Assembly (NCBI GenBank): GCA_016790765.1
Contig: JAEUMZ010000149.1
Coordinates: 39,245-103,244, forward strand
From: Betaproteobacteria bacterium
GTDB lineage: Bacteria > Pseudomonadota > Gammaproteobacteria > Burkholderiales > Usitatibacteraceae
Direction: 5' to 3'
DNA length: 64,000 nt
This document shows, piece after piece, positions 7,616 through 52,201 of this stretch; position 1 is the stretch's first letter, and each line of letters starts with the position of its first letter. The translations under genes were made by a program, and so were the position numbers. The notes under the pieces were generated by a model. That model did not search any database. It was given only the letters and a program-made list of their open reading frames with translations, and had not been told where the DNA came from.

Positions 7616-7618
7616 CGA

Positions 7619-8239: not shown

Positions 8240-8306
8240 GAGGTCCTCTGGGAACGATGGGTGGAGTGCCGGCAATCAACGCGTGGGGTCGGGGGCGGTT
8301 TACCGC

Positions 8307-8786: not shown

Positions 8787-8804
8787 GATTGAAGTTTCCT
8801 GTCG

Positions 8805-10517: not shown

Positions 10518-12074
10518 ATGACAGGACCTGCCGGCAGCGTCTTGCGCAGACCGCGTCTGGCGCCGGGAGTTCAATGCGCGAGTGCCAGTCCCTATAATCG
10601 ATGCGGTTTTCCGGCGTTCCCGCCGGCCCCGGACCGCGAGACCTGCTTGGCCACCAAACCCACCCTGTTGATCGTTGACGATGATCCGCTGATCAGCGAG
10701 AGTCTGTCCTTCGCGCTGGGCGACGACTTCGAAGTGGCGCTGCGCGGTTCGCGCATGGAGGCCATGGCGCTGTTGCGGTCGGGCACCTTTGTGCCTTCCT
10801 TGGCCCTGATCGACCTCGGCCTGCCGCCGGTGCCGCACCAGCCCGATGAAGGATTCAAGCTGGTGGGCGACCTTCTGGCATGGTCGCAGGAGCTGAAGAT
10901 CTTCATCCTGAGCGGACAGAACGAGGAATCCAATGCACGGCGCGCGCGCGCGCTGGGCGCCTACGAGTTGGTGCCCAAGCCTTGCGATCCGGTCCATCTG
11001 CGCAGGATGCTGATGGCCGCATTGGCGGGCAAGGCCACCGAGCGCCCCGCACCGGCAACCGAGGCGGTGGGCGAGTTGATTGGCGACACGCCGCCGATGC
11101 GCAAGCTCAAGCGCCAGATCGACCTCTATGCCGCGTCGATGTTCCCCGCGCTCATCGAGGGGGAATCGGGCACCGGCAAGGAGCGCGTGGCGGCGGCCCT
11201 GCACCACTTGAGCCCGCGTGCCCACTTGAAGTTCCTGGCCCTCAATTGCGCGGCGATTTCCGCCAACCTGGTGGAGCCGACGCTGTTCGGCCATGCAAAG
11301 GGGGCCTTCACCGGTGCCGCCACGCATAAATCAGGGTACTTCGAGGATGCCGGCGAGGGGACCCTGTTTCTCGACGAGATCGGCGAGCTGCCGCTCGACC
11401 TGCAGCCGAAGCTGCTGCGGGTGCTGGAAAACGGCGAGTACCAACGGGTCGGCGAGACGCAGACGCGCCAATCGCGGGCCCGCATCGTGGCCGCCACCAA
11501 TCGCGACCTGAAGGCGGAGGTCAAGGCCGGGCGCTTCCGTGCCGACCTGTACCATCGCCTGTCGGTGTTCACGCTGTCATTGCCGCCATTGCGCGACCTG
11601 GCGGACGACAAGCTGCGCCTGCTCGACCACTACCGTGCCGAGTACGCACGGCGCCACGGGACCGGGCCGTTTGAACTGGATGCCGGGGCGCGGGCTGCAT
11701 GGCTCGGATACGGCTTCCCGGGCAATGTGCGCGAATTGAAGAACATCGTGATCCGCCTCTTGGCCAAGTATGCCGGCTACACCGTGACGCGCGAGGAGCT
11801 GGTGGCCGAGTTTGAATCCGAGCCCGGCGCGCGCCACCCTGAATCGACGGACGGCGGCGGGCACGACGGGCAGCGCCCACAGATCGGCAATGGGTTCAAC
11901 CTGGGCCAGGAATTGGCGCGCATCGAGCTCCAGTTCATCGATGCCGCCATCGACGAAGCACGCGGCAACATGTCGCAGGCGGCGCGGCTCCTCGGCGTGT
12001 CGCGCTCAACGCTCTACAGCCGCCTCGACGCGCTGCGCCCCGGCCGCGCGCGCGAGGAGCAAACCGACAATTAG
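10518..12074 (+). CDS. sigma54-dependent (NtrC-family) response regulator, PrsR-like
   Basis: Receiver domain (TLLIVDDDP...LALIDLGLPP). AAA+ domain with Walker A GESGTGKE, an intact GAFTGA sigma54-contact loop and Walker B FLDEIGEL. C-terminal Fis-type HTH (NMSQAARLLGVSRSTLYSRL). The true start is probably the TTG at 10647 (LATKPTLLIVDDD); the first 43 codons look non-coding. Confidence 0.9.
   Translation: MTGPAGSVLRRPRLAPGVQCASASPYNRCGFPAFPPAPDRETCLATKPTLLIVDDDPLISESLSFALGDDFEVALRGSRMEAMALLRSGTFVPSLALIDLGLPPVPHQPDEGFKLVGDLLAWSQELKIFILSGQNEESNARRARALGAYELVPKPCDPVHLRRMLMAALAGKATERPAPATEAVGELIGDTPPMRKLKRQIDLYAASMFPALIEGESGTGKERVAAALHHLSPRAHLKFLALNCAAISANLVEPTLFGHAKGAFTGAATHKSGYFEDAGEGTLFLDEIGELPLDLQPKLLRVLENGEYQRVGETQTRQSRARIVAATNRDLKAEVKAGRFRADLYHRLSVFTLSLPPLRDLADDKLRLLDHYRAEYARRHGTGPFELDAGARAAWLGYGFPGNVRELKNIVIRLLAKYAGYTVTREELVAEFESEPGARHPESTDGGGHDGQRPQIGNGFNLGQELARIELQFIDAAIDEARGNMSQAARLLGVSRSTLYSRLDALRPGRAREEQTDN
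10570..10598 (+). promoter_or_regulatory. candidate sigma70 promoter for the response-regulator/msh operon
   Basis: TTCAAT (10570-10575), a 17-bp spacer, then a perfect TATAAT (10593-10598). It lies inside the track ORF's 5' extension, which argues for a downstream start (TTG 10647). Confidence 0.35.
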
Positions 12075-12125
12075 TCCGTGGGGCGAGTGCTACACTGCAC
12101 CGTTCACGCCAACGTCCGCGCAGCC

Positions 12126-13634
12126 ATGTCGATGTATCTCGCCCACTTCGGACTCACGGAAGCGCCGTTCAAGATCACGCCGCACACGGAGTTCTTCTTC
12201 GATGGCGCCAGCCGCGGGGAAACGCTTGAGGCGCTGATCTATGCCGTGATGACCGGCGAGGGCATGGTCAAGGTGACGGGCGAAGTGGGCGCGGGCAAGA
12301 CGATGCTTTGCCGCGTGCTCATGGAGCGCCTGCCCAGGGAGGTGGAGACGATCTACCTCGCGGTGCCGTCGATCTCGCGCGACGAGATCCTCGCCACCAT
12401 CGCCGGCGACCTCGGCATCGAGACGGTGGGCCTGTCGACCACCAAGATCATCCGTGCGCTTCAGCAACGGCTCATCGACCTGCACGTGGCCAACAAGCAG
12501 GTGGTGGCGTTGATCGACGAGGCGCACGCGATGCCCTTGGCGACGCTGGAGGAGATCCGGCTGCTGTCGAATCTGGAGACCAACCGCGACAAGCTGATGC
12601 AGATCGTGCTGTTCGGGCAACCCGAGCTCGACGCGCACCTCTCCTTGCCGAACATGCGCCAGCTGCGCGAGCGGATCACGCACAGCTTCAATCTCCAGCC
12701 GCTGCCCGCGCGCGACATCGGCGACTACCTCAATTTCCGCCTGCGCCAGGCCGGCTATCGCGGCCCCGACCTGTTTCGCGGCGAGGCCGTGAAAGTGATC
12801 GCCGAGGCCTCGGAGGGATTGACCCGCCGCATCAACATCTTTGCCGACAAGACCTTGCTGGCGGCCTATGCCGACAACACGCACGATGTCACCGCGCGGC
12901 ATGCACGCGCTGCGGTGGCGGATACGCAGATCACCGGGAACACGACTGCCGTGCGCCAGCGGCGCTGGCCGGTTCCGGCGGCTTTGGCGGCCGGCCTTCT
13001 GATTGGCGGCGGTGCGGGATATTGGCTCGGCCATGCACATTCCCGTTCAGGGTCGGCGGGGGCCACCGCGTCTGCGGAGGTCAAACCGCTTTCCGGTGCC
13101 CAGGCAAGCACCCCCGAGCGGACCCTACCTGTCCAGGCAGAGTTCCCGACGGATCCACCTGCCAAGGCGGCCGCATTGCCGATCGTCGCGGAGAAGTCGA
13201 ACGAGAAACGGGCCGCGCCGGCTGCGGGTGCATCGTCGGCGCCGGCGGCAGAAGTGGAGCCGGCTGCCGACCCGGTTCGCGATGCGCGGACGGCCGACAG
13301 CTGGCTGGGCGAGCGCATGCTGGCGGACTTGAACCGGCTGGCATCCGCCAGCAGTAGCGGATTTGCCATCCAACTCATGACGGCCGATGAGCATGAGGGA
13401 CCTGCCATTCGCGAATTCCTGCGCGTCGCCGCAAAGGAACTGGAACCCGACCGCCTCATGGTCTTCCCGTCCGGCTCCGCGTCGAACCGCAAGATCAGTG
13501 TGATCTATGGCCAATACGAGGATCGAGGTGGCGCGCAGGCGGAAATCGTCCGGTTGTCGCCGCGCCTCCGGCAATTCCGCCCTTTCATTCGCAGCGTCAA
13601 CGCCGTGCGCGCGGATGTCCGCGCGACCAGTTGA
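12126..13634 (+). CDS. mshM: ExeA/GspA-type AAA ATPase with C-terminal SPOR-like domain (MshM-like)
   Basis: MSMYLAHFGLTEAPF N-terminus, P-loop GEVGAGKT, DEAH box (ALIDEAHAM), one TM, an Ala/Pro-rich linker, then a SPOR-like tail (GFAIQLMTA...VIYGQYEDRGGAQAEI). Confidence 0.85.
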   Translation: MSMYLAHFGLTEAPFKITPHTEFFFDGASRGETLEALIYAVMTGEGMVKVTGEVGAGKTMLCRVLMERLPREVETIYLAVPSISRDEILATIAGDLGIETVGLSTTKIIRALQQRLIDLHVANKQVVALIDEAHAMPLATLEEIRLLSNLETNRDKLMQIVLFGQPELDAHLSLPNMRQLRERITHSFNLQPLPARDIGDYLNFRLRQAGYRGPDLFRGEAVKVIAEASEGLTRRINIFADKTLLAAYADNTHDVTARHARAAVADTQITGNTTAVRQRRWPVPAALAAGLLIGGGAGYWLGHAHSRSGSAGATASAEVKPLSGAQASTPERTLPVQAEFPTDPPAKAAALPIVAEKSNEKRAAPAAGASSAPAAEVEPAADPVRDARTADSWLGERMLADLNRLASASSSGFAIQLMTADEHEGPAIREFLRVAAKELEPDRLMVFPSGSASNRKISVIYGQYEDRGGAQAEIVRLSPRLRQFRPFIRSVNAVRADVRATS

Positions 13635-13664
13635 TTGAAATCTAAAGTGATTTTTCTGGAATCG

Positions 13665-13693
13665 CTGACAACCCATTGCTTTTATTGGATAAT
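13665..13693 (+). promoter_or_regulatory. candidate sigma70 promoter in the AT-rich spacer upstream of the secretin gene
   Basis: CTGACA (13665-13670), a 17-bp spacer, then GATAAT (13688-13693). It sits in the locally most AT-rich stretch (about 13632-13740). Confidence 0.4.
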
Positions 13694-13827
13694 CGCTTTA
13701 TAAAGCAGACTGAAACCAGATTGTCGTCCGGCACAGGGTTCCGCAGTCCATCGTGTGCACGGACCCAACCGCCGCAGGGACCTCGCTTTCTATGACCGTT
13801 GAGCGCGCGCACCGTCGCAGGAGCGTC

Positions 13828-15717
13828 ATGGGACGTACACAGTTGCCGCTGACCTTGGCGTGCATCGCCTTGTTGTCCGCGTGCGGCACCGCGCCCGTGG
13901 CGCGCGATGCCGGCCACCTCGGAGCGAGTCCCGAGGCCACGCGGCCTGCGGTCGTGGGCACCGGTGTCGTACCGACACCGATTCGCGATGTTCCCTTGCC
14001 GCCGCCGCCAAAGCCGCGGGTGGAGGAATTGAAGTACTCGGTGACGGTCAAGGATGTTCCGGTGCAGGAACTGATGTTCGCCATCAGCCGCGACACCAAG
14101 GTCAACATCGACATCCATCCCGGCATCGAAGGCCGCGTCACGCTCAATGCGATCGACCAGACCCTCAAGCAGATCCTCACGCGCGTGTCCAAGCAGGTCG
14201 ACATGCGCTGGGAAGTCGATGGGCCCAACATCGTGGTCCGGCCCGACCAGCCCTATCTGAAGCTGTACCGGATCGACTACGTCAACATGCAGCGCGACTC
14301 CACCAGTTCGATTGGTGTGCAGACGCAAGTTGTCGGCCCGAGCGATAGCGGACTCGCAGGCGGAAACACTTCTTCCACCGGCAGCGGCGAGAATAGTTCC
14401 AGGATCAAGTTGGAAAACGTCAGCAAGAATCGCTTCTGGGAAAACCTCGAAAAGAATGTCAAGGACCTGTTGCGCGAGACCGACAAGTTGCTGCCCGAAG
14501 GAAGCAAGGAAACCATTACGCAAAGCCGCTCACAGGGCAGCAGCGCATCAACAAGGCCTCAGCAAACTTCTGGATCCGGCAGAAGCAACGCTACGTCGCG
14601 CGTTGCAACTACGACCGGTGCAGGTGCCGCCGAAAACGCGGAAGAGAGCCAGTCTGTATCGCAGGTGCTGAATTTCCGCGAAGCGGCCTCGGTCATCGTC
14701 AATCCGGAAACTGGAACGGTGGCTGTGCGCGCCACATCGCGCCAGCACGAGAAAGTCGGCGAGTTCATCGAGCAGATCGGCGGTGCCGCGCGGCGCCAGG
14801 TCCTGATCGAGGCGACCGTGGTGGAAGTCCTGCTCAACGACAAATACCAGGCGGGCGTCGATTGGTCGGCTCTCGGCCTGCAGAACCTCGGCTATTCGTT
14901 TCGGCAGAGCTTCACCGGGGCCAACCTCCAGGAAGCCCCTTTCTTTTCCCTGCAGTACCGCAACCCGAATGCCGCAGCGGGCGGCGACATCAGCAGCACG
15001 GTCAAGATGCTGAACTCCTTCGGCACCTCCAAGGTCTTGTCGAGCCCGAAAATCATGACGCTCAACAACCAGACGGCCGTTATGCGTGTGGTCGAAAACC
15101 GAGTGTATTTCACTATCAAAGCTGAGCCCATCACCACGGTGAATCCAACCACGGGCGTGACCACGCAGTTGTTCCGATTTACCTCGACGCCAAACGTTGT
15201 TCCCGAAGGATTCGTGATGAATGTCACGCCGCAGATTGGCGAGAATGACATCATCAATCTCAACATGCGGCCCAGTGTCACGCGCATCACCAGCTTCGTC
15301 AACGATCCCAATCCTGACCTCAACCGGACAGGCGCCATACCAAACCAAATTCCGCAAATCCAGACGCGAGAATTCGAGACCATGTTGCGCGTGGCAAGCG
15401 GCCAGACCGCCGTGCTGGGCGGACTGATGCAGGACAGCTTTGCGGCCAATCGCGATGGCCTGCCCATCCTTGCACGCATTCCCATCCTCGGCGATGCGGT
15501 GAGCTATCGCAACGACACCGGCCGCAAGTCCGAGCTGGTGGTGTTCCTGCGTGCGACGGTGATCCGCGACGCGAACGTGGACACTGAACTGTCGAGTTTC
15601 AGGCGCTACCTGCCGGATGGACAGTTCTTCCGGGATCCGTCGCCCTCGCTCGATCCGGTGCGGGGCCTGCAGTCCCCTGAGCGTCCGCCCAGCCCCGAGG
15701 GCAAGCCCGCACCATGA
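13828..15717 (+). CDS. mshL: pilus secretin, lipoprotein type (MshL-like)
   Basis: ATG at 13828 preceded by AGGAG. Lipobox signal peptide MGRTQLPLTLACIALLSAC|G. Secretin C-domain (VLSSPKIMTLNNQTAVMRV...IPILGDAVSYRND...ELVVFLRATVI). Confidence 0.9.
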   Translation: MGRTQLPLTLACIALLSACGTAPVARDAGHLGASPEATRPAVVGTGVVPTPIRDVPLPPPPKPRVEELKYSVTVKDVPVQELMFAISRDTKVNIDIHPGIEGRVTLNAIDQTLKQILTRVSKQVDMRWEVDGPNIVVRPDQPYLKLYRIDYVNMQRDSTSSIGVQTQVVGPSDSGLAGGNTSSTGSGENSSRIKLENVSKNRFWENLEKNVKDLLRETDKLLPEGSKETITQSRSQGSSASTRPQQTSGSGRSNATSRVATTTGAGAAENAEESQSVSQVLNFREAASVIVNPETGTVAVRATSRQHEKVGEFIEQIGGAARRQVLIEATVVEVLLNDKYQAGVDWSALGLQNLGYSFRQSFTGANLQEAPFFSLQYRNPNAAAGGDISSTVKMLNSFGTSKVLSSPKIMTLNNQTAVMRVVENRVYFTIKAEPITTVNPTTGVTTQLFRFTSTPNVVPEGFVMNVTPQIGENDIINLNMRPSVTRITSFVNDPNPDLNRTGAIPNQIPQIQTREFETMLRVASGQTAVLGGLMQDSFAANRDGLPILARIPILGDAVSYRNDTGRKSELVVFLRATVIRDANVDTELSSFRRYLPDGQFFRDPSPSLDPVRGLQSPERPPSPEGKPAP

Positions 15718-17141
15718 GCCTGCTCCTCGATGCGCTCAGACGCGCCGAGGAAGCGAAGCGCGCCAAGCAGGGATCGGGTGACGAGGCCGCCGCGGGTGCG
15801 CCCCTCCCGCCCGAATCCGTCCCGTCGCCCGTGCGTCGGGCGGAACCGCCGCAGGGCGGGCTCTCCCTGGCCTTGGAGCCTGCCTCCGCACCTTCGTCCG
15901 TCCAGCCTCCCGCACGCACGATAGCGGCGCCGGCATTGGCCGATCGCGCGCCGGCCAACGCCCCGGCGACGGAATTTGCACTCGCCGACCTCGACAGCGC
16001 GGCCCCATTGCCGTCCGCGAGTGCGCCGCCGCCCTCTGCATTGCAGATCGCACCTGCGGCGAGCAGGACGGGGCCCGTTCCGGGTGACGATCATGCCCAG
16101 CGCGAACAGGTGCGCAATGCCTTTGCCGCCAAGGCATCGCCGTCGGCGGGCCGTCCACGCAAGTGGCTGGCGCCCGTCTTGGCGGTCGGCCTCGTTGCCG
16201 TCGGCGGTGGCGGATGGTATGTCTGGACCGAGATTCAACGCCTGTCCAAGCCGATGGTCGCGCAGGCACCAAGGCCAGCGCCGGCCCCACCCCCGGCAGC
16301 GGTCGTCACGCCTCCGGCCACTGCCGGCGCCGAACCCGCTTCCGCACCGACCGCAAGCCCGACCGGAGAGGTCAAGGCAGAGCCCGGCTTGCCACCCCTG
16401 CTGCCGCCGCCACCCCCCGAGGCCCCCAAGGCAGCGGCCGTACAGGCGGCGGCCGCGGCGAGCCGGCATTTGTCGGAGGCCGAAAAGGTGGCCAAGGCAA
16501 TTCTCGGCGCGGCACCCAAGGCGGAACCTCCGCTGGCCCTGAAGCCCTCGACCGTTGCCGAAGTACGCGTCAACCCGCACGTCGCGGCGGCGTACGCCGC
16601 GCTGCAATCGGGCGACTTGCGCCGCGCGGCATCCGAGTACGACCGCGCCGTGGCCGAGGCGCCATTGAACGTGGACGCCCATCTCGGGCGTGCCACCGTT
16701 GCCGCCCGATCGGGCGATCGATCCACGGCGGTTCGGCACTATCAGGAAGTACTGACCATTGACCCGCGCAACACGTATGCATTGAGCGGCTTGCTCGCCC
16801 TGCGCCCGGACCGCGGCGCGGACCGGCAAGAGGAGGAACTGCGCAGCCTGCTGGCCCAGAATCCCGAGGCGTCCGCATTGCATTTCGCGCTCGGCAACCT
16901 GCTCGCCGGACAACGCCGCTGGCAGGAGGCGCAACAGGCGTTCTTTGATGCATGGCGGGCAGAGCCGGAGCGCGCCGACTACGCCTACAACCTTGCCATC
17001 AGCCTCGATCAATTGAAGCAACCGTCGTTGGCCCGCGACTACTACGCGAAAGCCTTGTCGCTGGCCCGGACCGGCGGCGCACAATTCGACCCTGCGCCCG
17101 TGATCCGGCGCCTGGCGGAATTGGGCGGGTCCGCGCCGTAG
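15714..17141 (+). CDS. mshN: TPR-repeat pilus biogenesis protein (MshN-like)
   Basis: ATGA overlap with the secretin stop. N-terminus MSLLLDALRRAEEAK, a TM (WLAPVLAVGLVAVGGGGWYVW), a long Pro/Ala linker and C-terminal TPR repeats. The name is assigned from architecture and position only. Confidence 0.65.
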   Translation: MSLLLDALRRAEEAKRAKQGSGDEAAAGAPLPPESVPSPVRRAEPPQGGLSLALEPASAPSSVQPPARTIAAPALADRAPANAPATEFALADLDSAAPLPSASAPPPSALQIAPAASRTGPVPGDDHAQREQVRNAFAAKASPSAGRPRKWLAPVLAVGLVAVGGGGWYVWTEIQRLSKPMVAQAPRPAPAPPPAAVVTPPATAGAEPASAPTASPTGEVKAEPGLPPLLPPPPPEAPKAAAVQAAAAASRHLSEAEKVAKAILGAAPKAEPPLALKPSTVAEVRVNPHVAAAYAALQSGDLRRAASEYDRAVAEAPLNVDAHLGRATVAARSGDRSTAVRHYQEVLTIDPRNTYALSGLLALRPDRGADRQEEELRSLLAQNPEASALHFALGNLLAGQRRWQEAQQAFFDAWRAEPERADYAYNLAISLDQLKQPSLARDYYAKALSLARTGGAQFDPAPVIRRLAELGGSAP

Positions 17142-17234
17142 GGCCTTGCGGCGAGGGCGTCGTTTGCGCGCTTGCTACAATCCAATCCCGTACGCGCGTT
17201 CCGACTGGCAAGTTCGACTGTCCCGTCCCTACCC

Positions 17235-18950: not shown

Positions 18951-18952
18951 GC

Positions 18953-20155: not shown

Positions 20156-20162
20156 GCGCAGC

Positions 20163-21803
20163 GTGTCCAAGCACTTTCTCTACCTCACCAACGACAAGAT
20201 CATCGCCCTGGTCTGGAAGGGCGGTGCCATCGTCGAGCGCGAGGTGTTCACGAGCCTGGATGCGGAGTCGCCCGAGTTCGACCACTGGCTGCGGCGGCAC
20301 CAGCAGACGCCGGCCTGGCTGATCACCGACCTGATCGAAGAGGACTTCCGCGTCGATACGCTGCCGCACGTGCGCGGCGGCGACCGCGCGGCGGTGATCG
20401 AGCGCAAGCTTCAGCAGCTGTACCGTGCCAGCCCCTATCGTCACGCGATCGTGCAGGGGCGTGAGGAAGAGGGCCGGCGCGACGACCGCGTGCTGTTCCA
20501 TGCGGTGACCAACCCGGAACTGATCCATCCGATCGTCAACGCGCTGGCGCGCGCCGAGATTCCGCTGCAGGGCATCTCCTCGTCCGCGGTCTTGTCGGCC
20601 GGGCTGCCGGACGCGATGGACGTGTTCTTCACCCATACGCTGCTGGTCACCATCGTTCCGGAATTTGGCCTGCGCCAGACCTATTTTCGCGACAAGCAGA
20701 TCAAGTTCAGCCGCCTGACGCCGATCACCTATGACGAGGGGCAGTCGGTGGGCGACCTGATCGCCGCAGAAGCCAGCCGCACCTGGCAGTACCTGGACAG
20801 CCTGCGGTACTTCGCCGGCCGCGAGGAATCGCTGGAAGTCTGCATCGTGGTGCACGAAAGGGATCGCGACACGATTGCCGCCGCGATCCGCGCCTATCCC
20901 CTGTTCAAGTACCGGTTCCTCGACATCGGGGACGTCGCCACGCGCATCAAGCTCAAGCCGGCGCCGGTGTCGTCGCATGCCGAGGAAGTGCTCGTGCACC
21001 TGTACGCACAGCGCGGCGTGGAGAACCACTTTGCCGCCGCGGACCTGCTGCAGTTCGCCAAGTTCCGCCGCCAACGATTCGTGCTGCACGGCGCGACGGC
21101 GGTCATCCTCGCGGCGGGGCTGGGGGTCACGGCCTACAACCTGCAGCAGGCGGCGCGCATCTCGGTCGAAACGGACCGCTTCGACGTCCAGGCGCGCGGT
21201 GCACAGTCGGAGTACCAGAACATCTCGAACCTGATCCGCGGGCAGATTTCGGCCACCGCCGCCATGCGCGACACCAGCCTGTTCTTCCGCGCCAACGCCT
21301 TGCCGTCCACCGTGGCGCCGGGGGACTTCATGCGCCGGATCGCCCGCGCCTGGACGGACTTCCCGCGCCTCCGGATCAATCAAATCGTGTGGGCGCCAAA
21401 CCAGGACGCCGCGGTCAGCCCGCGCCTGCAGGCCAACGCGCTGCCGCGCCCGCTCAATGTGCGAGGTGAACTCAAGGATGCGGCAAAGCCCGCGGCCGTC
21501 GCACCGCCACCGCCCGGCGCGCCGGCGGCCTCGGATGCCGACCCGCTGTTGCCGGGCAACCAGTTCGAGATTGCGCTTATCGAGGGCAACATCACCGGAT
21601 TCCGCGGCGATTACCGGGAGGCCAACCGCCTCATGGAACAATGGCTGGCCCGCATGAATGCCGAGCCGGGCCTGAAGGCGGAAGTGCTCGACTGGCCGGT
21701 AGAAGTGCGCTCCGGTGCCGTGCTGCGCGGCCGCGTCGAGGATGTGGACGGCAGCGAGGCGCGCTTTGCCGTGCGCCTGGTCCGCGATCGGAGCGCCAAG
21801 TGA
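20163..21803 (+). CDS. PilM-PilN fusion-like pilus assembly protein (MshI-like)
   Basis: 546 aa. A cytoplasmic ~330-aa PilM-like region, a single TM (VLHGATAVILAAGLGVTAY) and a periplasmic PilN-like part. Assigned from architecture and gene order only. Confidence 0.6.
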   Translation: MSKHFLYLTNDKIIALVWKGGAIVEREVFTSLDAESPEFDHWLRRHQQTPAWLITDLIEEDFRVDTLPHVRGGDRAAVIERKLQQLYRASPYRHAIVQGREEEGRRDDRVLFHAVTNPELIHPIVNALARAEIPLQGISSSAVLSAGLPDAMDVFFTHTLLVTIVPEFGLRQTYFRDKQIKFSRLTPITYDEGQSVGDLIAAEASRTWQYLDSLRYFAGREESLEVCIVVHERDRDTIAAAIRAYPLFKYRFLDIGDVATRIKLKPAPVSSHAEEVLVHLYAQRGVENHFAAADLLQFAKFRRQRFVLHGATAVILAAGLGVTAYNLQQAARISVETDRFDVQARGAQSEYQNISNLIRGQISATAAMRDTSLFFRANALPSTVAPGDFMRRIARAWTDFPRLRINQIVWAPNQDAAVSPRLQANALPRPLNVRGELKDAAKPAAVAPPPPGAPAASDADPLLPGNQFEIALIEGNITGFRGDYREANRLMEQWLARMNAEPGLKAEVLDWPVEVRSGAVLRGRVEDVDGSEARFAVRLVRDRSAK

Positions 21804-22528
21804 CCGACCTGCGGGAATCGGCCTCCTTTCGCGCGCGGCGCTTTGCCGGCATCATCGCGCTGGTCGCGTTGCTGGTTGCGGGCGCAATCGGTGGCGGCAG
21901 CTGGTGGCTGTGGGAACGCGAGAAGAAACTGGCTGCCTTGTCCAAGCGCGATTTCTCGAATGCGGCGGCGCGGCTCGAGACCATCAAGCGCGAACGCGAC
22001 GACCTGCTCGGGTCCGAGGATACCTACCGCATGCTGGTCGCGCGCGGCGTATTCGCGCCCGAACAACGCCTCGACCTCATCGAGAGCCTGAAGGAACTGC
22101 GCGCGCGATACCGGTTGCAGGCCCTTGAGTACGAGGTGGCCCCGCAGCGCGCGCTCCGGTTCGCGACCGGGGTGAGTTATGGCGCAGCGGACATCCGCGC
22201 CAGCCGGTTGACCCTGAAGGTCCGCGCGGCCAGCGATGCGGACCTGATCGGGTTCCTCGACGAGTTCCCGCGCATCCGCCGCGGCTTTTTTCCGCTCGAC
22301 CAGTGTGCCTTCAAGCGCGAGAACCTGCGCGCCGGAGCGACCGCCGCGCCCGGCAATCCGCCTCCTGCAGGCGCAGCACCCGCGCCGGCCCCGGGTTCCC
22401 GGCAGCCTGTGCCTGCGGAAGCCGACGGCGGCGCCATCGAGGCTGAGTGCTCCGGAGAGTGGATCACCCTGGTCGAGAAGAACCCGGCCGGCGTGCCCGC
22501 GGCGCCGACAGGGCAGGCTGCGCGATGA
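21800..22528 (+). CDS. PilO/MshJ-like bitopic assembly protein
   Basis: GTG at 21800 overlaps the upstream stop (GTGA). TM FAGIIALVALLVAGAIGGGSWWLW, then a coiled-coil and a small periplasmic domain. The longer track start at 21641 would overlap the previous gene by 160 nt. Confidence 0.55.
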   Translation: MTDLRESASFRARRFAGIIALVALLVAGAIGGGSWWLWEREKKLAALSKRDFSNAAARLETIKRERDDLLGSEDTYRMLVARGVFAPEQRLDLIESLKELRARYRLQALEYEVAPQRALRFATGVSYGAADIRASRLTLKVRAASDADLIGFLDEFPRIRRGFFPLDQCAFKRENLRAGATAAPGNPPPAGAAPAPAPGSRQPVPAEADGGAIEAECSGEWITLVEKNPAGVPAAPTGQAAR

Positions 22529-22995
22529 TGCGCCCGGCCATGTTCCGGCGCCTGGTGCTTTGCATCGGCCTTCTGCCGGGCGCCATCGCGATGGCGGCCG
22601 AACCAGCCAAAGCAGCCGCCGCGCGACCGGCGGAGCCGGTCGCGACGAGTGGATTGACGGGCACGTTGTTCCTGTCCGAGGCCGAACGGGTGCGACTGGT
22701 GCGCCAGCGCCAGACCGGGTCCAGCGACCCGGATGCGCCGGCTGCGGACAGCGCCAGTGTGATCACCGGGTTCGTCCGGCGCGAGGGCGCCGGTACCACG
22801 GTCTGGGTGGACGGCCGCTTGGTCGGGGACGTCGACGCCGTGCTCGCCCAACGGATCGATGGATCGATGGTCGGCAATCCAAGCGGCACGCGCTTGTTGT
22901 CGAGCGGGACCGTGGCGGTGCGCGAAAAGGCTGGCAGCAAGGCGGCCGAGAAGGCGCCCCCCAGGAAGCCGGCGCGCAAAAAGCGGGGTTCGTAG
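22525..22995 (+). CDS. secreted small pilus-associated protein (MshK-like position), Lys-rich C-terminus
   Basis: ATGA overlap. Signal peptide MMRPAMFRRLVLCIGLLPGAIAMAAE. No recognisable domain. C-terminus KAAEKAPPRKPARKKRGS. Confidence 0.5.
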   Translation: MMRPAMFRRLVLCIGLLPGAIAMAAEPAKAAAARPAEPVATSGLTGTLFLSEAERVRLVRQRQTGSSDPDAPAADSASVITGFVRREGAGTTVWVDGRLVGDVDAVLAQRIDGSMVGNPSGTRLLSSGTVAVREKAGSKAAEKAPPRKPARKKRGS

Positions 22996-22996
22996 C

Positions 22997-24526
22997 ATGC
23001 GGCGCGGACCCGGTCCCGCGCGCGCAAGGCAGGCGGGCGTCATTCTGCTGATCATGGCGCTGGCGATCCTGATCGGCGGCGCGCTGGTCGTGATCAACGG
23101 CATCGACGGCAATGCCTCCCGCGTCGCACGCGACGCGCGCACCGAAAACGTGCTCAACCAGGCCAAGCAGGCCTTGATTGCGTACGCCTCGGGGCGCGAT
23201 ATTTCACCAACCCAGACGGCGGTGGGAACATTGCCCTGCCCTGACCTCGACGACGATGGGGCAGCCGAGACCAGCTGCGGCAATGCCTCAGGCAGTACGT
23301 CGCAGTCGAATCGCCTCGGCCGCCTGCCCTGGCGCACGTTGGGCATCGCGGACTTGCGCGATGCCTCCGGCGAGCGGCTGTGGTATGCGGTGTCGAGCAT
23401 GTACAAGACCAGTACCGTCAACGGGTTCAATCCCACCACGGGGCTGGGGACCATCACCGTGCGCGATGCTGCCGGAACGGTGTTCCAGGACGGCACCTTG
23501 TCCAATCCGTACACGGCGGGTACCGGCGGTGCCGTCGCCGTGATTTTCGCGCCTGGCGATGCGCTGGTACGTCAAGGGGGCAGCACGCTTCAGGACCGTT
23601 CGTGCAGCGGCGGCAGCTGCGGCAGCCAGGGAGAATGCACCTCGTCTCCGGCGTCGCTGACCGCCAAGTGCAATCCGGTGAACTACCTCGACGTGGCGAT
23701 GGGCGAGGACAATTCGAACTTTGTCGACAATAACGTCACGCGCACGGCGAATGGCAACGGCTTCATCAGCGGACCCGTCTTCAGCGGCAATTCCGTCATC
23801 CTTAATGATCGTATCGCGGTGGTTGGCTACGAGGACATCATGCCCGCCCTCCAACGGCGCGTGGCGCGCGAAGTCCTGAAGTGCCTGACGAGCTACGCGG
23901 CGACCTATCGCAATCGCTACCCGTGGCCCGCGCCGACTTGCCGGCAGGCTTCATCGATCAACAGTTGGTCGGATCACGATTCGGTCCTGTTCGGGCGCGT
24001 CCCGGACACTGGGTCCGGCACATTCGACACCACGGTCTCGACCAGCGGCTCCACCATGGGGGACACGTTCACCGGCGACTGCATGTTTGAGTCGCTGACC
24101 GGTTGGTGGCCCAACTGGAAGCGCCACGTGTTCTACGCCGTGGCGGATGCGCACAAGCCGGCCGCGTCGGCCGCCGGCAACGGCGGGCCGTGCAGCGGCG
24201 ACTCGAATTGCCTGCGCATCGCGGATTCCTCCGGCAACATCCTCGCCAGCAACAAGCAGGTGGCCGTCATCGTGACGGGCCGCGCGCTGAATGGCGTGAG
24301 CCCAGCCCAGGTGCGCAGCGGCAACAACGACGGATATGCGTCAAACTACATCGAAGGCAACAACGTGACGCTGGAGCAAATGATTGTGGGCACGATCCCG
24401 GCCGCCTGCAACGCGCTGTCGCCGGCGGTGGTCACCACCGGCTGTTCCCCGTTGTCCAACTGCAACCGCGTGACCACCGGCAACCGCTCGCCCTCATTCA
24501 ACGACGTCGTGGTCTATTCACCCTGA
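22997..24526 (+). CDS. large Cys-rich minor pseudopilin-like protein (GspK-type N-terminus without Glu+5)
   Basis: ATG 1 nt after the previous stop. MRRGPGPARARQAG|VILLIMALAILIGGALVV resembles GspK/XcpX-type leaders. 14 Cys by my count. Shares a G(T/R)LPCP motif with the next gene. Confidence 0.55.
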   Translation: MRRGPGPARARQAGVILLIMALAILIGGALVVINGIDGNASRVARDARTENVLNQAKQALIAYASGRDISPTQTAVGTLPCPDLDDDGAAETSCGNASGSTSQSNRLGRLPWRTLGIADLRDASGERLWYAVSSMYKTSTVNGFNPTTGLGTITVRDAAGTVFQDGTLSNPYTAGTGGAVAVIFAPGDALVRQGGSTLQDRSCSGGSCGSQGECTSSPASLTAKCNPVNYLDVAMGEDNSNFVDNNVTRTANGNGFISGPVFSGNSVILNDRIAVVGYEDIMPALQRRVAREVLKCLTSYAATYRNRYPWPAPTCRQASSINSWSDHDSVLFGRVPDTGSGTFDTTVSTSGSTMGDTFTGDCMFESLTGWWPNWKRHVFYAVADAHKPAASAAGNGGPCSGDSNCLRIADSSGNILASNKQVAVIVTGRALNGVSPAQVRSGNNDGYASNYIEGNNVTLEQMIVGTIPAACNALSPAVVTTGCSPLSNCNRVTTGNRSPSFNDVVVYSP

Positions 24527-24533
24527 GCCCCTG

Positions 24534-25355
24534 ATGCCCCGCCGCCCCCCCAACCGCCGCGAACCATCGAGCACCGGCTTCACCATCCTCGAGATTGCCG
24601 TGGTGCTGGTCATCATCACGGTGATGTTCACGTTGGTGAGCGTGCCGCTGTCGACCCAGGTGCAGTTGCGGCGCATCGAGGACAGCCGCCGCCAGCTTGA
24701 AACGGCCAAGGCCGCAATCCTTGGTTTCGCCGTCGCCAACGGCAGGTTGCCGTGCCCGGCACAGATCAACTCCGGGGGCCAGGAGAGTTTTTGCGCCGCC
24801 GCCACCGGCACCTGCAGCGGCAGCGAAACCACCACCGTGCAAGCCCATGGCAACTGCTCCAATTTTTACGATGGGTTGCTGCCGGCCGTGACCCTGGGCC
24901 TGTCGCCGATCGATTCGGCGGGTTTTTCGCGCGACGCCTGGGACACGATGTCCAATCGTATCCGCTATGCGGTGTACGACGGAACGGTGGGTACCGCGAC
25001 GAAGGCGCTCACCGCGCAGAACGGCATGCAGACGGCCACCATTCCGAGCCTTGGCACGGCCAACTACATCTACGTGTGCAAGAGCGGCACCGGCGTCACG
25101 GCGACCCAGTGCGCCGCCGCCGGCACGGCCAACGACCTCTCGACCCGGGTGGCTTTCCTGCTGTTCTCGCTGGGCCAGAATGCGTCGAGCGCCACCAGCG
25201 GCACCGGAACGGACGAGGCGGAAAACCTCGATGGCGACCGGGTGTTCGTGTCCCACGACCCGACCGTGGGCACCAATGAATTCGACGACCAGTTGAGCTG
25301 GGTGCCGATCACGATCCTGATCAACCGCATGGTGGATGCCCAGCGCTTGCCGTAA
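24534..25355 (+). CDS. prepilin-type N-terminal cleavage/methylation domain protein (minor pilin)
   Basis: Class-III signal ...EPSSTG|FTILEIAVVLVIITVMFTLV with Glu+5. 273 aa. GRLPCPA motif and several Cys pairs. Confidence 0.8.
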   Translation: MPRRPPNRREPSSTGFTILEIAVVLVIITVMFTLVSVPLSTQVQLRRIEDSRRQLETAKAAILGFAVANGRLPCPAQINSGGQESFCAAATGTCSGSETTTVQAHGNCSNFYDGLLPAVTLGLSPIDSAGFSRDAWDTMSNRIRYAVYDGTVGTATKALTAQNGMQTATIPSLGTANYIYVCKSGTGVTATQCAAAGTANDLSTRVAFLLFSLGQNASSATSGTGTDEAENLDGDRVFVSHDPTVGTNEFDDQLSWVPITILINRMVDAQRLP

Positions 25356-25363
25356 GCGTACCG

Positions 25364-27094
25364 TCAGTCCGGCTGCCGGGCGGACAGCACGAAGCACACC
25401 GCCCCCGAGCGGTTTTCGCGCAGCCGCAACTCGAACCCGGCGCGTTCCGCCTGGCGCGCCACCTGGTACAGGCCGATGCCCAGCCCGCCGCGCCGCGAAC
25501 TGGCGATCGGTGCGCTGAACAGACTGTCCAGTGCACCGGACGGAATCGCGCTGCCGGTGTCGCGCACCGTCAAGGGCACGCTGCCCCCGGCGTCGAGCAC
25601 CACCTCGATCGCGATGTCCGGCTCGGTGGCGCGCTTTTTCTTCGCGTTCTCGACGCAGTTCTCCACCATGGCGTCGAACAGGTTGGCGGGCACCGCGACC
25701 GAGAGATCACCGCCGGCAAACAGCGTGATGCCGTCCGCCTGGTGCCGTTGCACCACTTCCTGCCACCAATCCCCGGCCGGCAGCATGGCGGTGGCGATGC
25801 CGACCTCCGGGTTCTGCAGCTTGTCCAGCGTCGTCTCCAGGCGCTTGGCCAGCGTTGGCAATTGGCGCTCGAGCAGCTGTTGGTAGGCGGATTTCTCGCG
25901 CCGCTCGTGTTCGACCCGCGCCATGCCCGCGGAGGTCAATGCGTACAGCGATTGCAGCAGGTTCTTCACGTCGTGGGTAAGGCGCGCGCCGGTCTCGTGC
26001 ACCGCCTGCATGTAGGCGTTCTCCTTCAGTGCCTGCTCGCGGCGCTTGCCCTCATAGAATTCCCCGATCACCTGGGCCAGCAGGCGCAAGTGCAGGAACA
26101 TCGCCGGTGACAGGTGGATCTGCGTATAGAACGTGATCTCGAGCTGGTGGTACTTGAACGCCGTGACGTGGTCGCTGGACTTGCCGAAGCGGCCGGTACC
26201 GTCGGGCGTCTTCCATTCGCCGCCGGTAATCCATGGGAACTTGGCGACTTCTTCGATGGTGCTTTCCAGGAAACGCGCCGAGCTGATTTCCGTTTCCGAC
26301 AACTCCGCCACGCGGCGCATCCAGAGTTCGAACGGCATGCCGACGCTGAGCAGGTAGCGCGAAAGATAGGTGCGCAGGCCGCCATACCCGGTGCGCGGCG
26401 CCCACAACACCGCCAGCACGAACAGCGCCACGGCGAAGGACAGCACGGTCAGCAGCACCGCCTGGAAGTACTGGTTGCCGGTGACGCGCATGGCCGCGAT
26501 GCTGCCCAGCACCATCACGATGACCAGCTGGAACACGATCAGGCTGTAGACGAAATCGAACACCTGGGTGGTCGATTCGTCCTCGGCGCGAAACGGCAGG
26601 AACACCAGTGTCAGCAAGGTCAGCGGCAGGAACAGTTCGGCCAGCACCGTGAGCCCCGGCGGCAGGATCTCGATGTCCAGCAATGAGCGCGGCACCGTCC
26701 ACACCAGCAGGATCGTGAACAGGTAGAACACCGCCACCAGGTAGAAGCGCGTGCGCCGCGCGGCCTGCGCCGTGAACACCTTGCCGCCCATGATGCCGAT
26801 CAGGATCGCCAGCCACATCGCGAGCATCCAGCCCGCGAGCGAGAACATCACCACCGCCGTGATGCCCACCAGCAACAGCATCGCCGCCACCTTGACCTCG
26901 CGCTCGGTGCTGTAGATCGGCTGCCAGATGAGAAACAGGCCGAAATGCACCAGCAGCCAGACGCGCTGGAAATCGGCCGATTGGCTCACCAGCGCGGCGT
27001 GCAAGGACAACAGCATGGCCAGGATCACCCACCGGCGGGCACGCACCAGCAGGGCGGGCTGGGAGCCCAAGGCGGAGGGCGAGCTCGACGTCAT
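25364..27094 (-). CDS. multi-TM sensor histidine kinase (PrsK-like)
   Basis: About 8 N-terminal TM helices with no obvious periplasmic domain. H-box RLTHDVKNLLQSL, N-box ENCVENAKKK, G1 DTGSAIP, G2 GGLGIGLY. The ATG at 27092-27094 is preferred; the track's TTG at 27181 is possible. Confidence 0.88.
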   Translation of the reverse strand: MTSSSPSALGSQPALLVRARRWVILAMLLSLHAALVSQSADFQRVWLLVHFGLFLIWQPIYSTEREVKVAAMLLLVGITAVVMFSLAGWMLAMWLAILIGIMGGKVFTAQAARRTRFYLVAVFYLFTILLVWTVPRSLLDIEILPPGLTVLAELFLPLTLLTLVFLPFRAEDESTTQVFDFVYSLIVFQLVIVMVLGSIAAMRVTGNQYFQAVLLTVLSFAVALFVLAVLWAPRTGYGGLRTYLSRYLLSVGMPFELWMRRVAELSETEISSARFLESTIEEVAKFPWITGGEWKTPDGTGRFGKSSDHVTAFKYHQLEITFYTQIHLSPAMFLHLRLLAQVIGEFYEGKRREQALKENAYMQAVHETGARLTHDVKNLLQSLYALTSAGMARVEHERREKSAYQQLLERQLPTLAKRLETTLDKLQNPEVGIATAMLPAGDWWQEVVQRHQADGITLFAGGDLSVAVPANLFDAMVENCVENAKKKRATEPDIAIEVVLDAGGSVPLTVRDTGSAIPSGALDSLFSAPIASSRRGGLGIGLYQVARQAERAGFELRLRENRSGAVCFVLSARQPD

Positions 27095-27109
27095 GCGCCT
27101 GTCGAGTAT

Positions 27110-27125
27110 CCGGACAACTGTCCGG
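27110..27125. promoter_or_regulatory. 7-2-7 palindrome CCGGACA-AC-TGTCCGG (candidate enhancer/UAS or kinase operator)
   Basis: Perfect 7-bp inverted arms read directly. About 100 bp upstream of the sigma54 -24 element and 16 bp upstream of the preferred kinase start. Confidence 0.35.
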
Positions 27126-27201
27126 CGATCCCACAATCCGGGTGTGCCCAAACTGAAGAAAATCGGGCGCAAAACATCCAATTAACCATTTTTGTGAATG
27201 A

Positions 27202-27214
27202 AATCAATAAATTG
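27202..27214 (+). promoter_or_regulatory. IHF-consensus site
   Basis: AATCAATAAATTG matches WATCAANNNNTTR at every specified position. It sits in an AT-rich tract just upstream of the sigma54 promoter. Confidence 0.4.
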
Positions 27215-27220
27215 AAAATC

Positions 27221-27236
27221 TGGCACATGGATTGCA
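27221..27236 (+). promoter_or_regulatory. sigma54 (RpoN) -24/-12 promoter
   Basis: TGGCACatggaTTGCA is an exact match to TGGCAC-N5-TTGCA. It lies 184 nt upstream of the major pilin ATG, and a sigma54 activator is encoded in the same locus. Confidence 0.75.
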
Positions 27237-27278
27237 GTGTCTGTACCAGCAGCACACGAATTGCCACAGGAGCCCACC

Positions 27279-27368
27279 ATGAAAGCCACCGCCGTTCGCA
27301 CCACCCTCAATGAGTTGGCCATCGCCTTCATTGTAGTCGGCATGGCCTTCGGAACCTACGTCAAATAA
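27279..27368 (+). CDS. unannotated 29-codon sORF (hydrophobic peptide) in the pilin leader
   Basis: AGGAG at 27268-27272, a 6-nt spacer, then the ATG at 27279. Translation MKATAVRTTLNELAIAFIVVGMAFGTYVK*, with one predicted TM helix. Below the ORF-track size cutoff. Confidence 0.35.
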   Translation: MKATAVRTTLNELAIAFIVVGMAFGTYVK

Positions 27369-27419
27369 TCGGCAAGCCAGTTTTCGCACTCTATCAATCG
27401 TCAAAACGGGGACATCATC

Positions 27420-28079
27420 ATGAAAAGCATGAAATCGCAGCAATCGGGCTTCACGCTCGTTGAAATCGCCATCGTCCTGGTCATCATCGGTCTGCTGCTC
27501 GGCGGCATCCTGAAGGGCCAGGAGCTCATCAACAGCGCCAAGGTCAAGGGCCTGGCCCAGGACTTCCGCAATATCCAGACCGCCCTTTACGGCTACCAGG
27601 ACCGTTACAAGGCCATCCCGGGCGACCACGCCACCGCGGCCACCGCAGTCAACGGAGCCACCACGGCGACCACGCCGGCCGGCACCATCGGCAATGGCCA
27701 GATCAACGGCACGTGGGACACGGCGACCAACACCGATGAATCGCGCCTGTTCTGGCAGCACATTCGCCTCGCCGGTTTCATGGCCGGCCCGACGGCCGTG
27801 ACCGACCCAGAGTACACGCCGAAGAACGCGGTGGGCCTCAACATGGGCATCAGCAGCACCATGCAGATGACCCTGCCAGCCCCGGGCATGACCGGCACCT
27901 ACAACATCTGCTCGACCGGCATCCTCGGCAAGTTCGCCAAGCAGCTCGACACCCAACTCGATGACGGCAATACGCTGACCGGTTCGTTCCGCGTCGCCGC
28001 GCTCGCCACGCCGACCACGGCGATCGCCACCAACACCGTGGACGATGCCACCTCGTACCTGGTGTGCATGTCGTTCTGA
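27420..28079 (+). CDS. major type IV pilin / pseudopilin (GspG/MshA-like)
   Basis: MKSMKSQQSG|FTLVEIAIVLVIIGLLLGGIL: short leader, Phe+1, Glu+5. 219 aa. Followed by a strong intrinsic terminator. Confidence 0.9.
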   Translation: MKSMKSQQSGFTLVEIAIVLVIIGLLLGGILKGQELINSAKVKGLAQDFRNIQTALYGYQDRYKAIPGDHATAATAVNGATTATTPAGTIGNGQINGTWDTATNTDESRLFWQHIRLAGFMAGPTAVTDPEYTPKNAVGLNMGISSTMQMTLPAPGMTGTYNICSTGILGKFAKQLDTQLDDGNTLTGSFRVAALATPTTAIATNTVDDATSYLVCMSF

Positions 28080-28102
28080 TCGAACGCCGCGTCCCCGGAA
28101 AT

Positions 28103-28129
28103 GGCCCGCCCGTGCGGGCTATTTTTTTT
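28103..28129 (+). terminator. rho-independent terminator of the pilin gene
   Basis: GCCCGC-ccgt-GCGGGC stem-loop (28104-28119) followed by T-A-T8. Confidence 0.75.
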
Positions 28130-30196: not shown

Positions 30197-30279
30197 TTCA
30201 GGGGCTCGGGACGGGAATGGGGGCTCGGGACAACCTGAATGCAGCGACTTTGCATGCCCTGCAAGGCTAGAATGCCGCC

Positions 30280-36902: not shown

Positions 36903-37028
36903 TTATACTTTTCCTCGCGGTTTGGGGCTCGGGTCTGAGGCCAGATTGCGGCGGGCGAATCTGGCAGATTCCCCTCTGAAAACCTGCGTTCCCGACCAGG
37001 GGCTGCGCCCATGACAGGCCGATCGATT

Positions 37029-51395: not shown

Positions 51396-51413
51396 GGCGC
51401 ATGGAAGCGGCCG

Positions 51414-52154: not shown

Positions 52155-52201
52155 CCTGCAAGAATACCAGCAAGGCTTCGCCGGGTCACGGTGGGGCGCG
52201 G

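Follow-up and report, generated by a model that had tools for sequence, protein, structure and literature searches.

We examined a 64-kb window of DNA from a Betaproteobacteria bacterium of the family Usitatibacteraceae (64,000 nucleotides; contig JAEUMZ010000149.1, positions 39,245 to 103,244), in which positions 10518 to 28129 carry the genes of a type IV pilus machine resembling the mannose-sensitive hemagglutinin (MSHA, or MSH) pilus of Vibrio cholerae, together with an NtrC-type sigma-54 activator (here called the regulator) and a sensor histidine kinase. A listing of open reading frames (ORFs), filtered by GC content at third codon positions (GC3), recovered thirteen genes in this block, and all of them had the coordinates, strands, and order given in a first-pass annotation of the same DNA (Table 1). 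The window has a GC content of ∼66%, and the GC content of the pilus locus equals that of its flanks. Our preferred reading, which we regard as probable, is that the locus encodes an MSH-like pilus with a dedicated PilS/PilR-like switch for its major pilin. Gene identities, synteny, the conservation of the promoter and its palindromes, and the coding signature of a micro-ORF were all obtained by sequence analysis and comparison.

Table 1. Features of the pilus locus and its regulatory elements (positions are those of the 64-kb window)
Feature	Position	Strand	Basis or remarks
(C)TATAAT, conserved sigma-70 −10-like box	10593..10598	+	Direct sequence read; upstream of the regulator/assembly operon; putative promoter
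NtrC-type sigma-54 activator (regulator)	10647..12074	+	REC, AAA+ with GAFTGA, Fis-type HTH
ExeA/GspA/MshM-like AAA ATPase	12126..13634 (ORF from 12078)	+	AAA_22; low-complexity linker, then an uncharacterized C-terminal domain
MshL-type lipoprotein secretin	13753..15717; likely start 13828 (MGRTQLP...)	+	Secretin PF00263; lipobox LLSAC
TPR protein, MshN/TadD-like position	15714..17141	+	TPR Pfam families; one transmembrane helix
PilB/MshE-type extension ATPase	17235..18950	+	T2SSE PF00437 and N-terminal MshEN PF05157
GspF/PilC/MshG-type inner-membrane platform	18953..20155	+	PF00482 twice
p7, PilM-like actin fold, transmembrane helix, and periplasmic alpha/beta domain (MshI/GspL-like architecture)	20163..21803	+	Predicted model
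p8, bitopic, with N-terminal transmembrane helix, coiled coil, and periplasmic domain; PilO/GspM-like position	21800..22528	+	Topology, synteny
p9, small predicted secreted protein, motif GTLFFS..ER.R.D; MshK/PilP position	22525..22995	+	Synteny
p10, large, Cys rich, and fast evolving, with a pilin-like hydrophobic N terminus	22994..24526	+	14 Cys; transmembrane helix 16-34
p11, minor prepilin TG/FTILE..., 6 Cys	24534..25355	+	GspH/GspG/PF07963 N-terminal matches
Sensor histidine kinase	25364..27094; ORF reaches 27181	-	7 to 8 predicted transmembrane helices, DHp, CA
Tandem palindromes TGTCGAGTATCCGGACA and TGTCCGGCGATCCCACA, candidate upstream activator sequence	27100..27135	.	Conserved placement; putative binding sites
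Sigma-54 −24/−12 promoter element TGGCACATGGATTGCA	27221..27236	+	Zero-mismatch match
Micro-ORF, 29 codons, MKATAVRTTLNELAIAFIVVGMAFGTYVK, AGGAG ribosome-binding site	27279..27368	+	Conservation; putatively translated and functional
Major pilin	27420..28079	+	N_methyl motif, G/FTLVE

The assembly genes begin, behind the regulator, with an AAA ATPase (AAA_22, PF13401) whose best NCBIfam match was the ExeA-like family TIGR03015 (214.7 bits; cut-off, 324.5). These two matches fit the ExeA/MshM-like character proposed for this protein, but the SPOR tail that had been assigned to it was not recovered: neither a SPOR nor a peptidoglycan-binding domain was detected at the C terminus by Pfam at E ≤ 10 or by a phmmer search of the PDB. 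There was no MshM-specific model among the matches from the libraries searched. The secretin matched MshL best (TIGR02519, 236.3 bits; cut-off, 250.2), with GspD at 140.8 bits, and it also matched secretins in the PDB; with its Secretin domain and the lipobox in its translation, it is the lipoprotein secretin that had been described. In the TPR protein, several TPR Pfam families were found over the C-terminal 190 residues, and a transmembrane (TM) helix is predicted at residues 152 to 170. The extension ATPase scored 62.7 bits with an MshE-related cyclic di-GMP (c-di-GMP) motif model (NF053729; cut-off, 38), and its residues 12 to 151 matched the N-domain of V. cholerae MshE (5HTL; E, 8e-14). 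The PDB matches of the extension ATPase were PilF (451 bits), PilB (412 bits), and GspE (381 bits). The platform protein matched GspF (TIGR02120) at 277.8 bits, under the 424-bit cut-off.

None of the products p7 to p10 could be assigned to a Pfam or NCBIfam family. For p7, an identical (100%) hypothetical protein is known from a Betaproteobacteria metagenome-assembled genome, and every one of the p7 homologues (more than 829) is annotated as hypothetical, without a named domain. Sequence-profile searches against the PDB gave no meaningful matches for p7 or p8, and p7 was informative by fold search alone: the five best PDB matches of its AlphaFold model (predicted local distance difference test [pLDDT], 60) were all Pseudomonas aeruginosa PilM (5EOX/5EOU; E, 8e-8). 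A TM helix is predicted at residues 306 to 324, followed by a periplasmic alpha/beta domain. Of the PilM-N fusion proposed in the first-pass annotation, it is thus the PilM-like part that is supported, by a model of moderate confidence. The gene for p8 is kept in synteny and its product has a predicted TM helix at residues 15 to 33; the sole signal from hidden Markov models (HMMs) was a faint match to T2SSM (PF04612) in 2 of 10 orthologues in a Pfam scan, and the suggestion that p8 is PilO-like rests on this and on membrane topology. For p9, a signal-peptide-like N terminus is predicted, and synteny is again conserved.

Both p10 and p11 had been described as Cys-rich minor pilins. This holds for p11, a canonical prepilin, but not in the same sense for p10, which has no G-F-x-x-x-E motif (the Glu5 is missing). 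We consider p10 a candidate tip protein or minor-pilin-like adhesin from its sequence features; its orthologues are 425 to 689 amino acids (aa) long and 21 to 80% identical. The major pilin has a 10-residue leader, a mature protein of 209 residues, and a C-terminal Cys pair. Among its orthologues, which retain the short leader and the Cys pair, mature length ranges from 204 to 224 residues. The pilin scored above the cut-offs of PF07963 and TIGR02532, both of which are generic to type IV filaments and not specific to MSH pili, and the N termini of the pilin and p11 best matched the GspG and GspH models. Further, divergence is much faster in p10, p11, and the pilin than in the motor proteins, as is expected of surface-exposed parts.

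We compared this gene content with the MSH model of Denise et al. (2019), in which mshA, mshE, mshG, and mshL, together with mshM, are mandatory. The locus has an MshEN-bearing ATPase, a platform protein, and a pilin with a class III signal peptide, all in a single locus that lacks a prepilin peptidase: no ORF for this enzyme occurs in positions 10518 to 28129, and no match to it was found among the flanking products scanned. MSH loci are known as single-locus systems without a prepilin peptidase (PMC6668835). The first-pass annotation is supported in describing an MSHA-like type IV pilus machine whose gene order is rearranged and which lacks a prepilin peptidase. Like the MSHA locus of V. cholerae (mshHIJKLMNEGF-BACDOPQ), the system is confined to one locus, with no prepilin peptidase and no dedicated retraction ATPase, and it shares with that locus a lipoprotein secretin closest to MshL, an ExeA/MshM-like ATPase, an MshN-like TPR protein, an MshE-type MshEN ATPase, a GspF-type platform, and a predicted PilM-TM-periplasmic fusion in the MshI position. 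Unlike in V. cholerae, the order is regulator-M-L-N-E-G-I-like, followed by family-specific genes; equivalents of MshJ, K, F, B, C, D, O, P, and Q are undetectable or replaced by p8 to p11; the pilin is larger (∼210 mature residues); the curated models for the machine all scored below cut-off; and the pilin gene is solitary, preceded by a sigma-54 promoter and provided with a kinase and regulator of its own.

The same genes might instead encode a type II secretion system (T2SS)-like exporter with a short periplasmic pseudopilus and no surface pilus, which we judge improbable. The best matches of the pilin and p11 N termini to GspG and GspH, the strong subthreshold matches to GspD, GspE, and GspF, and an operon without a retraction ATPase all fit an exporter of this kind, as does the ExeA-like gene, since ExeA/GspA-type ATPases are T2SS secretin assembly factors. 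However, no GspC, L, M, I, J, or K was matched in the HMM searches, and no product reached the cut-off of any Gsp equivalog model. The secretin is closer to MshL than to GspD (236 versus 141 bits), and the extension ATPase, with its MshEN domain, is nearer to PilF and PilB than to GspE. A mature length of 204 to 224 residues and a C-terminal disulfide pair, the latter conserved here as a Cys pair, are traits of type IV pilins and not of major pseudopilins. The fast evolution of p10, p11, and the pilin, like that of surface-exposed proteins, also argues against a periplasmic structure.

The regulator contains REC (PF00072), Sigma54_activat (PF00158), and HTH_8 (PF02954) domains; the DLGLPP receiver and the GAFTGA motif noted earlier are both visible in its translation, and its closest solved structures are Aquifex NtrC1 and NtrC4. 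The gene probably starts at the TTG at position 10647, and not at 10518, because the CTATAAT box lies inside the long ORF and the orthologues begin just before the receiver. Of 23 related loci, at least 13 have this box 5′ of the regulator gene, and the assembly operon appears to use a sigma-70-type promoter.

The kinase, encoded on the opposite strand, has 7 to 8 predicted TM helices and a HATPase_c domain (PF02518), in agreement with its earlier description as an eight-TM kinase. Its start at the ATG at 27094 follows the NCBI call and the homologues. It has an H-box (THDVKNLL), no large periplasmic loop, and a small alpha/beta module before the DHp-CA part, and its AlphaFold model (pLDDT, 63), together with the Foldseek matches of that model, indicates a canonical DHp-CA kinase. 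The polytopic sensor lacks a periplasmic domain and is highly conserved; it matched no Pfam or NCBIfam model. The sensor family comprises 439 clusters at 50% identity with a uniform layout, almost all of 550 to 620 aa. PilS and PilR models were not among the NCBIfam matches of the kinase and the regulator.

The sigma-54 consensus TGGCAC-N5-TTGCW has one perfect match in the 64-kb window, and this match lies between the kinase and the pilin, 184 nucleotides (nt) 5′ of the pilin ATG. Exactly one perfect site precedes the pilin in all of the 16 related kinase-pilin loci and in locus L083, where kinase and pilin form a detached module. Elsewhere in the locus, no sigma-54 site (allowing ≤2 mismatches) recurred across loci. 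We had also considered that the whole operon might be sigma-54 dependent, and this was dropped because no site before the assembly genes recurs across loci. Roughly 90 to 120 nt 5′ of the −24 element are two TGTC-N9-GACA palindromes (27100 to 27116 and 27119 to 27135), the first of which is the sole exact TGTC-N9-GACA in the window. In 14 loci, the pair occupies fixed positions, −111 to −123 and −90 to −103, where chance would give 0.11 sites per 260 nt; the upstream element TGTCGA-N5-CGGACA starts 90 to 123 nt 5′ of the −24 element. As predicted elements, the sigma-54 site and the palindromes have the classic layout of an enhancer-dependent promoter, and the NtrC-type regulator that heads the operon would be the obvious protein to bind the palindromes. 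The first palindrome is 6 nt from the kinase start codon, so the regulator may, speculatively, also affect expression of the kinase.

This arrangement resembles that of PilS and PilR. PilS is an atypical six-TM kinase that contacts PilA directly, and PilR works together with sigma-54 at the promoter of pilA (PMC6058289). As in the PilS/PilR-RpoN systems of Pseudomonas aeruginosa, Myxococcus, Geobacter, Xanthomonas, and Lysobacter, a polytopic kinase without a periplasmic domain is found with a REC-AAA+-Fis regulator, the major pilin lies immediately behind a sigma-54 promoter that has upstream activator sites, and the kinase gene also adjoins the pilin. In contrast to PilS/PilR, the sensor has no detectable kinship to any curated family and has 7 to 8 TM helices, not six; the transmitter is closest to that of PrsK; the genes of the two-component pair are split across a 15-kb operon; the machine served is MSH-like and not a type IVa pilus; and an additional micro-ORF lies between the promoter and the pilin.

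The product of the micro-ORF is hydrophobic and is predicted to be a single-pass membrane mini-protein. About a dozen loci, among them L083 with its detached module, have an ORF of 28 to 32 codons at this position. Among ten copies, pairwise differences by codon position were 0.39/0.22/0.51, which is the pattern expected of a translated gene. The micro-ORF was absent from L014, L020, and L029 and from more distant clades. Gene finders left it uncalled in related records; that of L083, for example, has in its stead a spurious call of 94 aa on the other strand. Rfam and tRNA scans covering the entire window returned no matches, and the pilin leader accordingly showed no known RNA family. The micro-ORF would be cotranscribed with the pilin and is presumably translated and functional. 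The pilin sigma-54 site, the tandem palindromes, and the micro-ORF are all newly reported here.

To place the locus among its relatives, we scanned one genome per species for relatives of p7 and obtained 195 loci, 80 of which were fetched. By this count, the pilus operon recurs in at least 195 species genomes. The order regulator-MshM-secretin-TPR-MshE-GspF-p7-p8-p9-p10-p11 was invariant in the fetched loci. The hosts are largely uncultured Betaproteobacteria from soil, freshwater, and wastewater; they belong to Usitatibacteraceae and other Burkholderiales, Rhodocyclaceae, Nitrosomonadaceae, Sulfuricellaceae, and Gallionellaceae and include the complete genomes UKL13-2 and GR16-43. The regulator is directly 5′ of the ExeA-like gene in 22 of the 24 loci that could be evaluated. 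The kinase is convergent on p11 in 16 of 33 evaluable loci, with the pilin beside the kinase in 14 of those 16. In L083, the kinase-pilin module is intact but detached from the operon, next to kefB/kdsD/kdsC/rlmL/pilT, and it keeps the kinase, palindromes, sigma-54 site, micro-ORF, and pilin together.

The association extends to a gammaproteobacterial branch, in which the sensor is 28% identical, the kinase is again convergent on the same operon (the fetched stretch covers TPR through p11), and a GG-N10-GC site and a related palindrome, TGTTGAAATCTCGACA, precede the pilin. This synteny across Beta- and Gammaproteobacteria indicates that the two-component pair belongs to the locus, as the first-pass annotation had it, and that it is a constant companion of the pilus family and not an oddity of this genome. 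What had been taken for an unusual combination is thus the standard arrangement of a large pilus family. The pilus-plus-regulator system is uncharacterized, though it is not rare within this family. In the searchable literature, we found no description of it beyond a passing remark on rearranged MSH clusters of unknown function in Sideroxydans and Gallionella (PMC3770913).

Some of the related loci had additional genes near the kinase. In the gammaproteobacterial branch, three genes lie between the kinase and the pilin (L085, 7105 to 9875; L086, 1228 to 4016; L087, 7165 to 9921), namely, one for a nucleotidyl cyclase of class III (Guanylate_cyc) and two that are unknown or code for membrane proteins (ABC-2-like in L085), and an ABC ATPase gene is found 3′ of the pilin in L085 and L087. 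The cyclase insertion may bring a cyclic-nucleotide input to the kinase-pilin circuit. In L081 (7555 to 9447), the kinase is flanked by a LytTR-type two-component pair and has no adjacent pilin.

The first-pass annotation had likened the regulator and kinase to PrsR and PrsK and had proposed that this pair was wired to a reduced MSHA machine, a rewiring that would link the pilus to an exopolysaccharide/PEP-CTERM regulon. The resemblance itself was recovered, in that PrsR and PrsK were the top NCBIfam matches of the two proteins, but their membership in these families was not, as both scored far below the equivalog cut-offs. The regulator scored 335.1 bits with PrsR (TIGR02915; cut-off, 502.6), and the NtrC model was only 10 bits lower (325.2 bits). 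The kinase scored 51.2 bits with PrsK (TIGR02916; cut-off, 300) over model positions 460 to 676, which cover the transmitter only. Of 9 distant kinase family members, 8 gave this transmitter match as well (30 to 63 bits); the DHp-CA module of the kinase is therefore probably of the PrsK lineage. A search for PrsR kinship with tblastn against plasmids and chromids was unproductive, returning only generic NtrC, ZraR, and FleR types at 36 to 40% identity.

Other features of PrsK/PrsR/PrsT systems are shared as well. They too combine a multi-TM kinase with a Fis/NtrC-type sigma-54 activator, their models scored best among the curated ones, and a 17-nt upstream motif and a −24/−12 promoter precede a single structural gene. 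Moreover, the best model for the ExeA-like ATPase, TIGR03015, is itself PEP-CTERM associated. The known PrsK/PrsR promoters are likewise sigma-54 promoters with a 17-nt upstream motif, but this PEP-CTERM box ends in TTTACA and is followed by a spacer of ∼63 nt and then the sigma-54 site (Haft et al. 2006; PMC1569441), whereas the element found here is TGTC-N9-GACA at ∼90 to 120 nt. A tandem arrangement of PrsK and PrsR is seen in 12 of 13 genomes (PMC1569441), whereas the two genes here occupy opposite ends of the locus. Further, the kinase sensor does not align to the PrsK model and is unrelated to the PrsK sensor, having its own uniform architecture of ∼570 aa, and the ATPase, like the two regulatory proteins, is far under its cut-off (215 versus 325 bits). 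The target is a type IV pilin without a PEP-CTERM tail, and, as the first-pass annotation had observed, the 64-kb window holds no exosortase; nor were PEP-CTERM genes found in it. We therefore consider it very unlikely that a PrsK/PrsR pair was rewired to this machine. By function, the pair is better described as a PilS/PilR-type pilin switch, an outcome that the first-pass annotation had itself counted as refuting its proposal.

It is about equally unlikely that the two-component system is a mere conserved neighbor that controls other targets while a different activator serves the pilin promoter: the kinase is missing from the operon end in 17 of 33 loci and stands without an adjacent pilin in L081, but the regulator is the first operon gene in nearly all loci evaluated, a kinase gene detached from the operon still has the pilin and its sigma-54 promoter beside it, the association spans Beta- and Gammaproteobacteria, the palindromes abut the kinase start codon, and the sigma-54 site of the pilin is the only conserved one in the locus.

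We therefore return to an MSH-like pilus with a dedicated PilS/PilR-like pilin switch as the reading we favor. On this reading, the assembly machine would be made constitutively or semiconstitutively from the sigma-70-type promoter. The ExeA/MshM-like ATPase and the TPR protein would probably help the MshL-type secretin assemble, p7 and its periplasmic partners p8 and p9 would form an alignment complex, and p10 and p11 would probably prime or tip the fiber, while the MshEN domain would make the ATPase, and so assembly, responsive to c-di-GMP. With the major pilin gene placed apart from the operon behind a sigma-54 promoter, pilin supply would limit fiber production. The polytopic kinase would control phosphorylation of the regulator, which would bind both palindromes and, with RpoN, open the promoter for the micro-protein and the pilin. 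We infer this action of the regulator at the pilin promoter, and we likewise take the product to be an adhesive pilus. Prepilin processing, and retraction if there is any, would be borrowed from housekeeping genes (for instance, pilT at 35862 to 36902).

The kinase most likely senses the pilin or the micro-protein within the membrane. By analogy to PilS, and given the missing periplasmic domain and the position of the gene beside the pilin, it may read the unassembled pilin or the micro-protein. A more specific idea, which we hold to be doubtful, is that the micro-protein, alone or with unassembled pilin, could be a dedicated membrane feedback signal for the kinase, as in the MgrB/PhoQ pair. 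If so, the kinase, micro-protein, and pilin would make up a new three-part sensor of membrane inventory, and this sensor would govern an unrecognized and widespread pilus family of soil and freshwater Beta- and Gammaproteobacteria.

Several points weigh against the reading of an MSH-like pilus with its own pilin switch. The curated MshL, GspE/PilB, GspF, and ExeA-like models all stayed under their cut-offs, and so the MSH assignment rests on best hits and gene content and not on phylogeny; p8, p9, and p10 have no detectable family, and the models of p7 and the kinase are of moderate confidence (pLDDT, 60 and 63, respectively). The pilus family is known from its genes alone. The kinase lies away from the operon end in about half of the evaluable loci (the 17 of 33 noted above), and the detached kinase-pilin module was checked in one genome (L083) among the kinase-less operons. 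Finally, rpoN is not in the window, and another bacterial enhancer-binding protein of the genome could serve the pilin promoter.

If the favored reading holds, sigma-54 control of pilin supply in the manner of PilS/PilR extends beyond type IVa pili, and the PrsK-like lineage of transmitters has come to be joined to another membrane sensor. The circuit can be read as a whole from the sequence, from the promoter and activator sites to the kinase, the regulator, and a candidate micro-protein modulator. Several of the protein families involved are unannotated, five of the proteins being without a Pfam or NCBIfam family, and the sensor domain of the kinase, which likewise has none, is new. For annotation, kinases and regulators of this type should not carry the names PrsK and PrsR.

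The junction between p11 and the kinase was considered separately. The stop codons of the two convergent genes are at 25353 to 25355 (p11) and 25364 to 25366 (kinase), leaving exactly the 8 nt between them that had been reported. In relatives, this gap ranges from −21 to 97 nt and reaches 1,334 nt in L023, and the longer gaps often carry a GC-rich hairpin. For example, a GC-rich inverted repeat of the type TTGGCGCG...CGCGCCAA is found in gaps of 76 to 97 nt in L003 (15492 to 15569), L004 (15584 to 15663), L005, L007, L015, and L053. The repeat is probably a bidirectional terminator, to judge from its sequence, and it is missing from the 8-nt gap of the window. A generic promoter and terminator scan of the window gave counts that were not above those of shuffled sequences, so no terminator can be claimed at the 8-nt junction. 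For this genome, the earlier inference that the two transcripts are bound to overlap or collide is plausible, but this is not a conserved design, as the gaps vary in relatives; the tight junction is a local loss specific to this lineage and not a designed feature.

The pilus locus sits between the mlaFEDCB lipid-asymmetry operon (7289 to 10420, − strand) and kefB/C-kdsD-kdsC (28226 to 31871). Related loci are often found between mlaF and kefB/kdsD as well, and this position, common to many related genomes, points to an insertion that is old and stable and not to a mobile island. Farther along the window, positions 48615 to 52582 (− strand) hold what is likely a chaperone-usher-type fimbrial cluster. 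A 926-aa protein in it had weak usher matches (116 bits, well short of the cut-off) and is accompanied by a protein of 246 aa and a secreted protein of 126 aa without an NCBIfam family. An ORF of 982 aa at 38529 to 41477 (+ strand) has a coding-like GC3 and no NCBIfam match at E ≤ 1e-5. The gene for a housekeeping PilT retraction ATPase (35862 to 36902, − strand; TIGR01420, 508 bits) is ∼8 kb from the pilus locus. Beside it, the genes at 37011 to 37748 and 37745 to 38587 (both + strand) are yggS-like and proC-like by N-terminal sequence. The pilT neighborhood (kef, kdsD, kdsC, rlmL, and pilT) is shared by the window and the detached module of L083.

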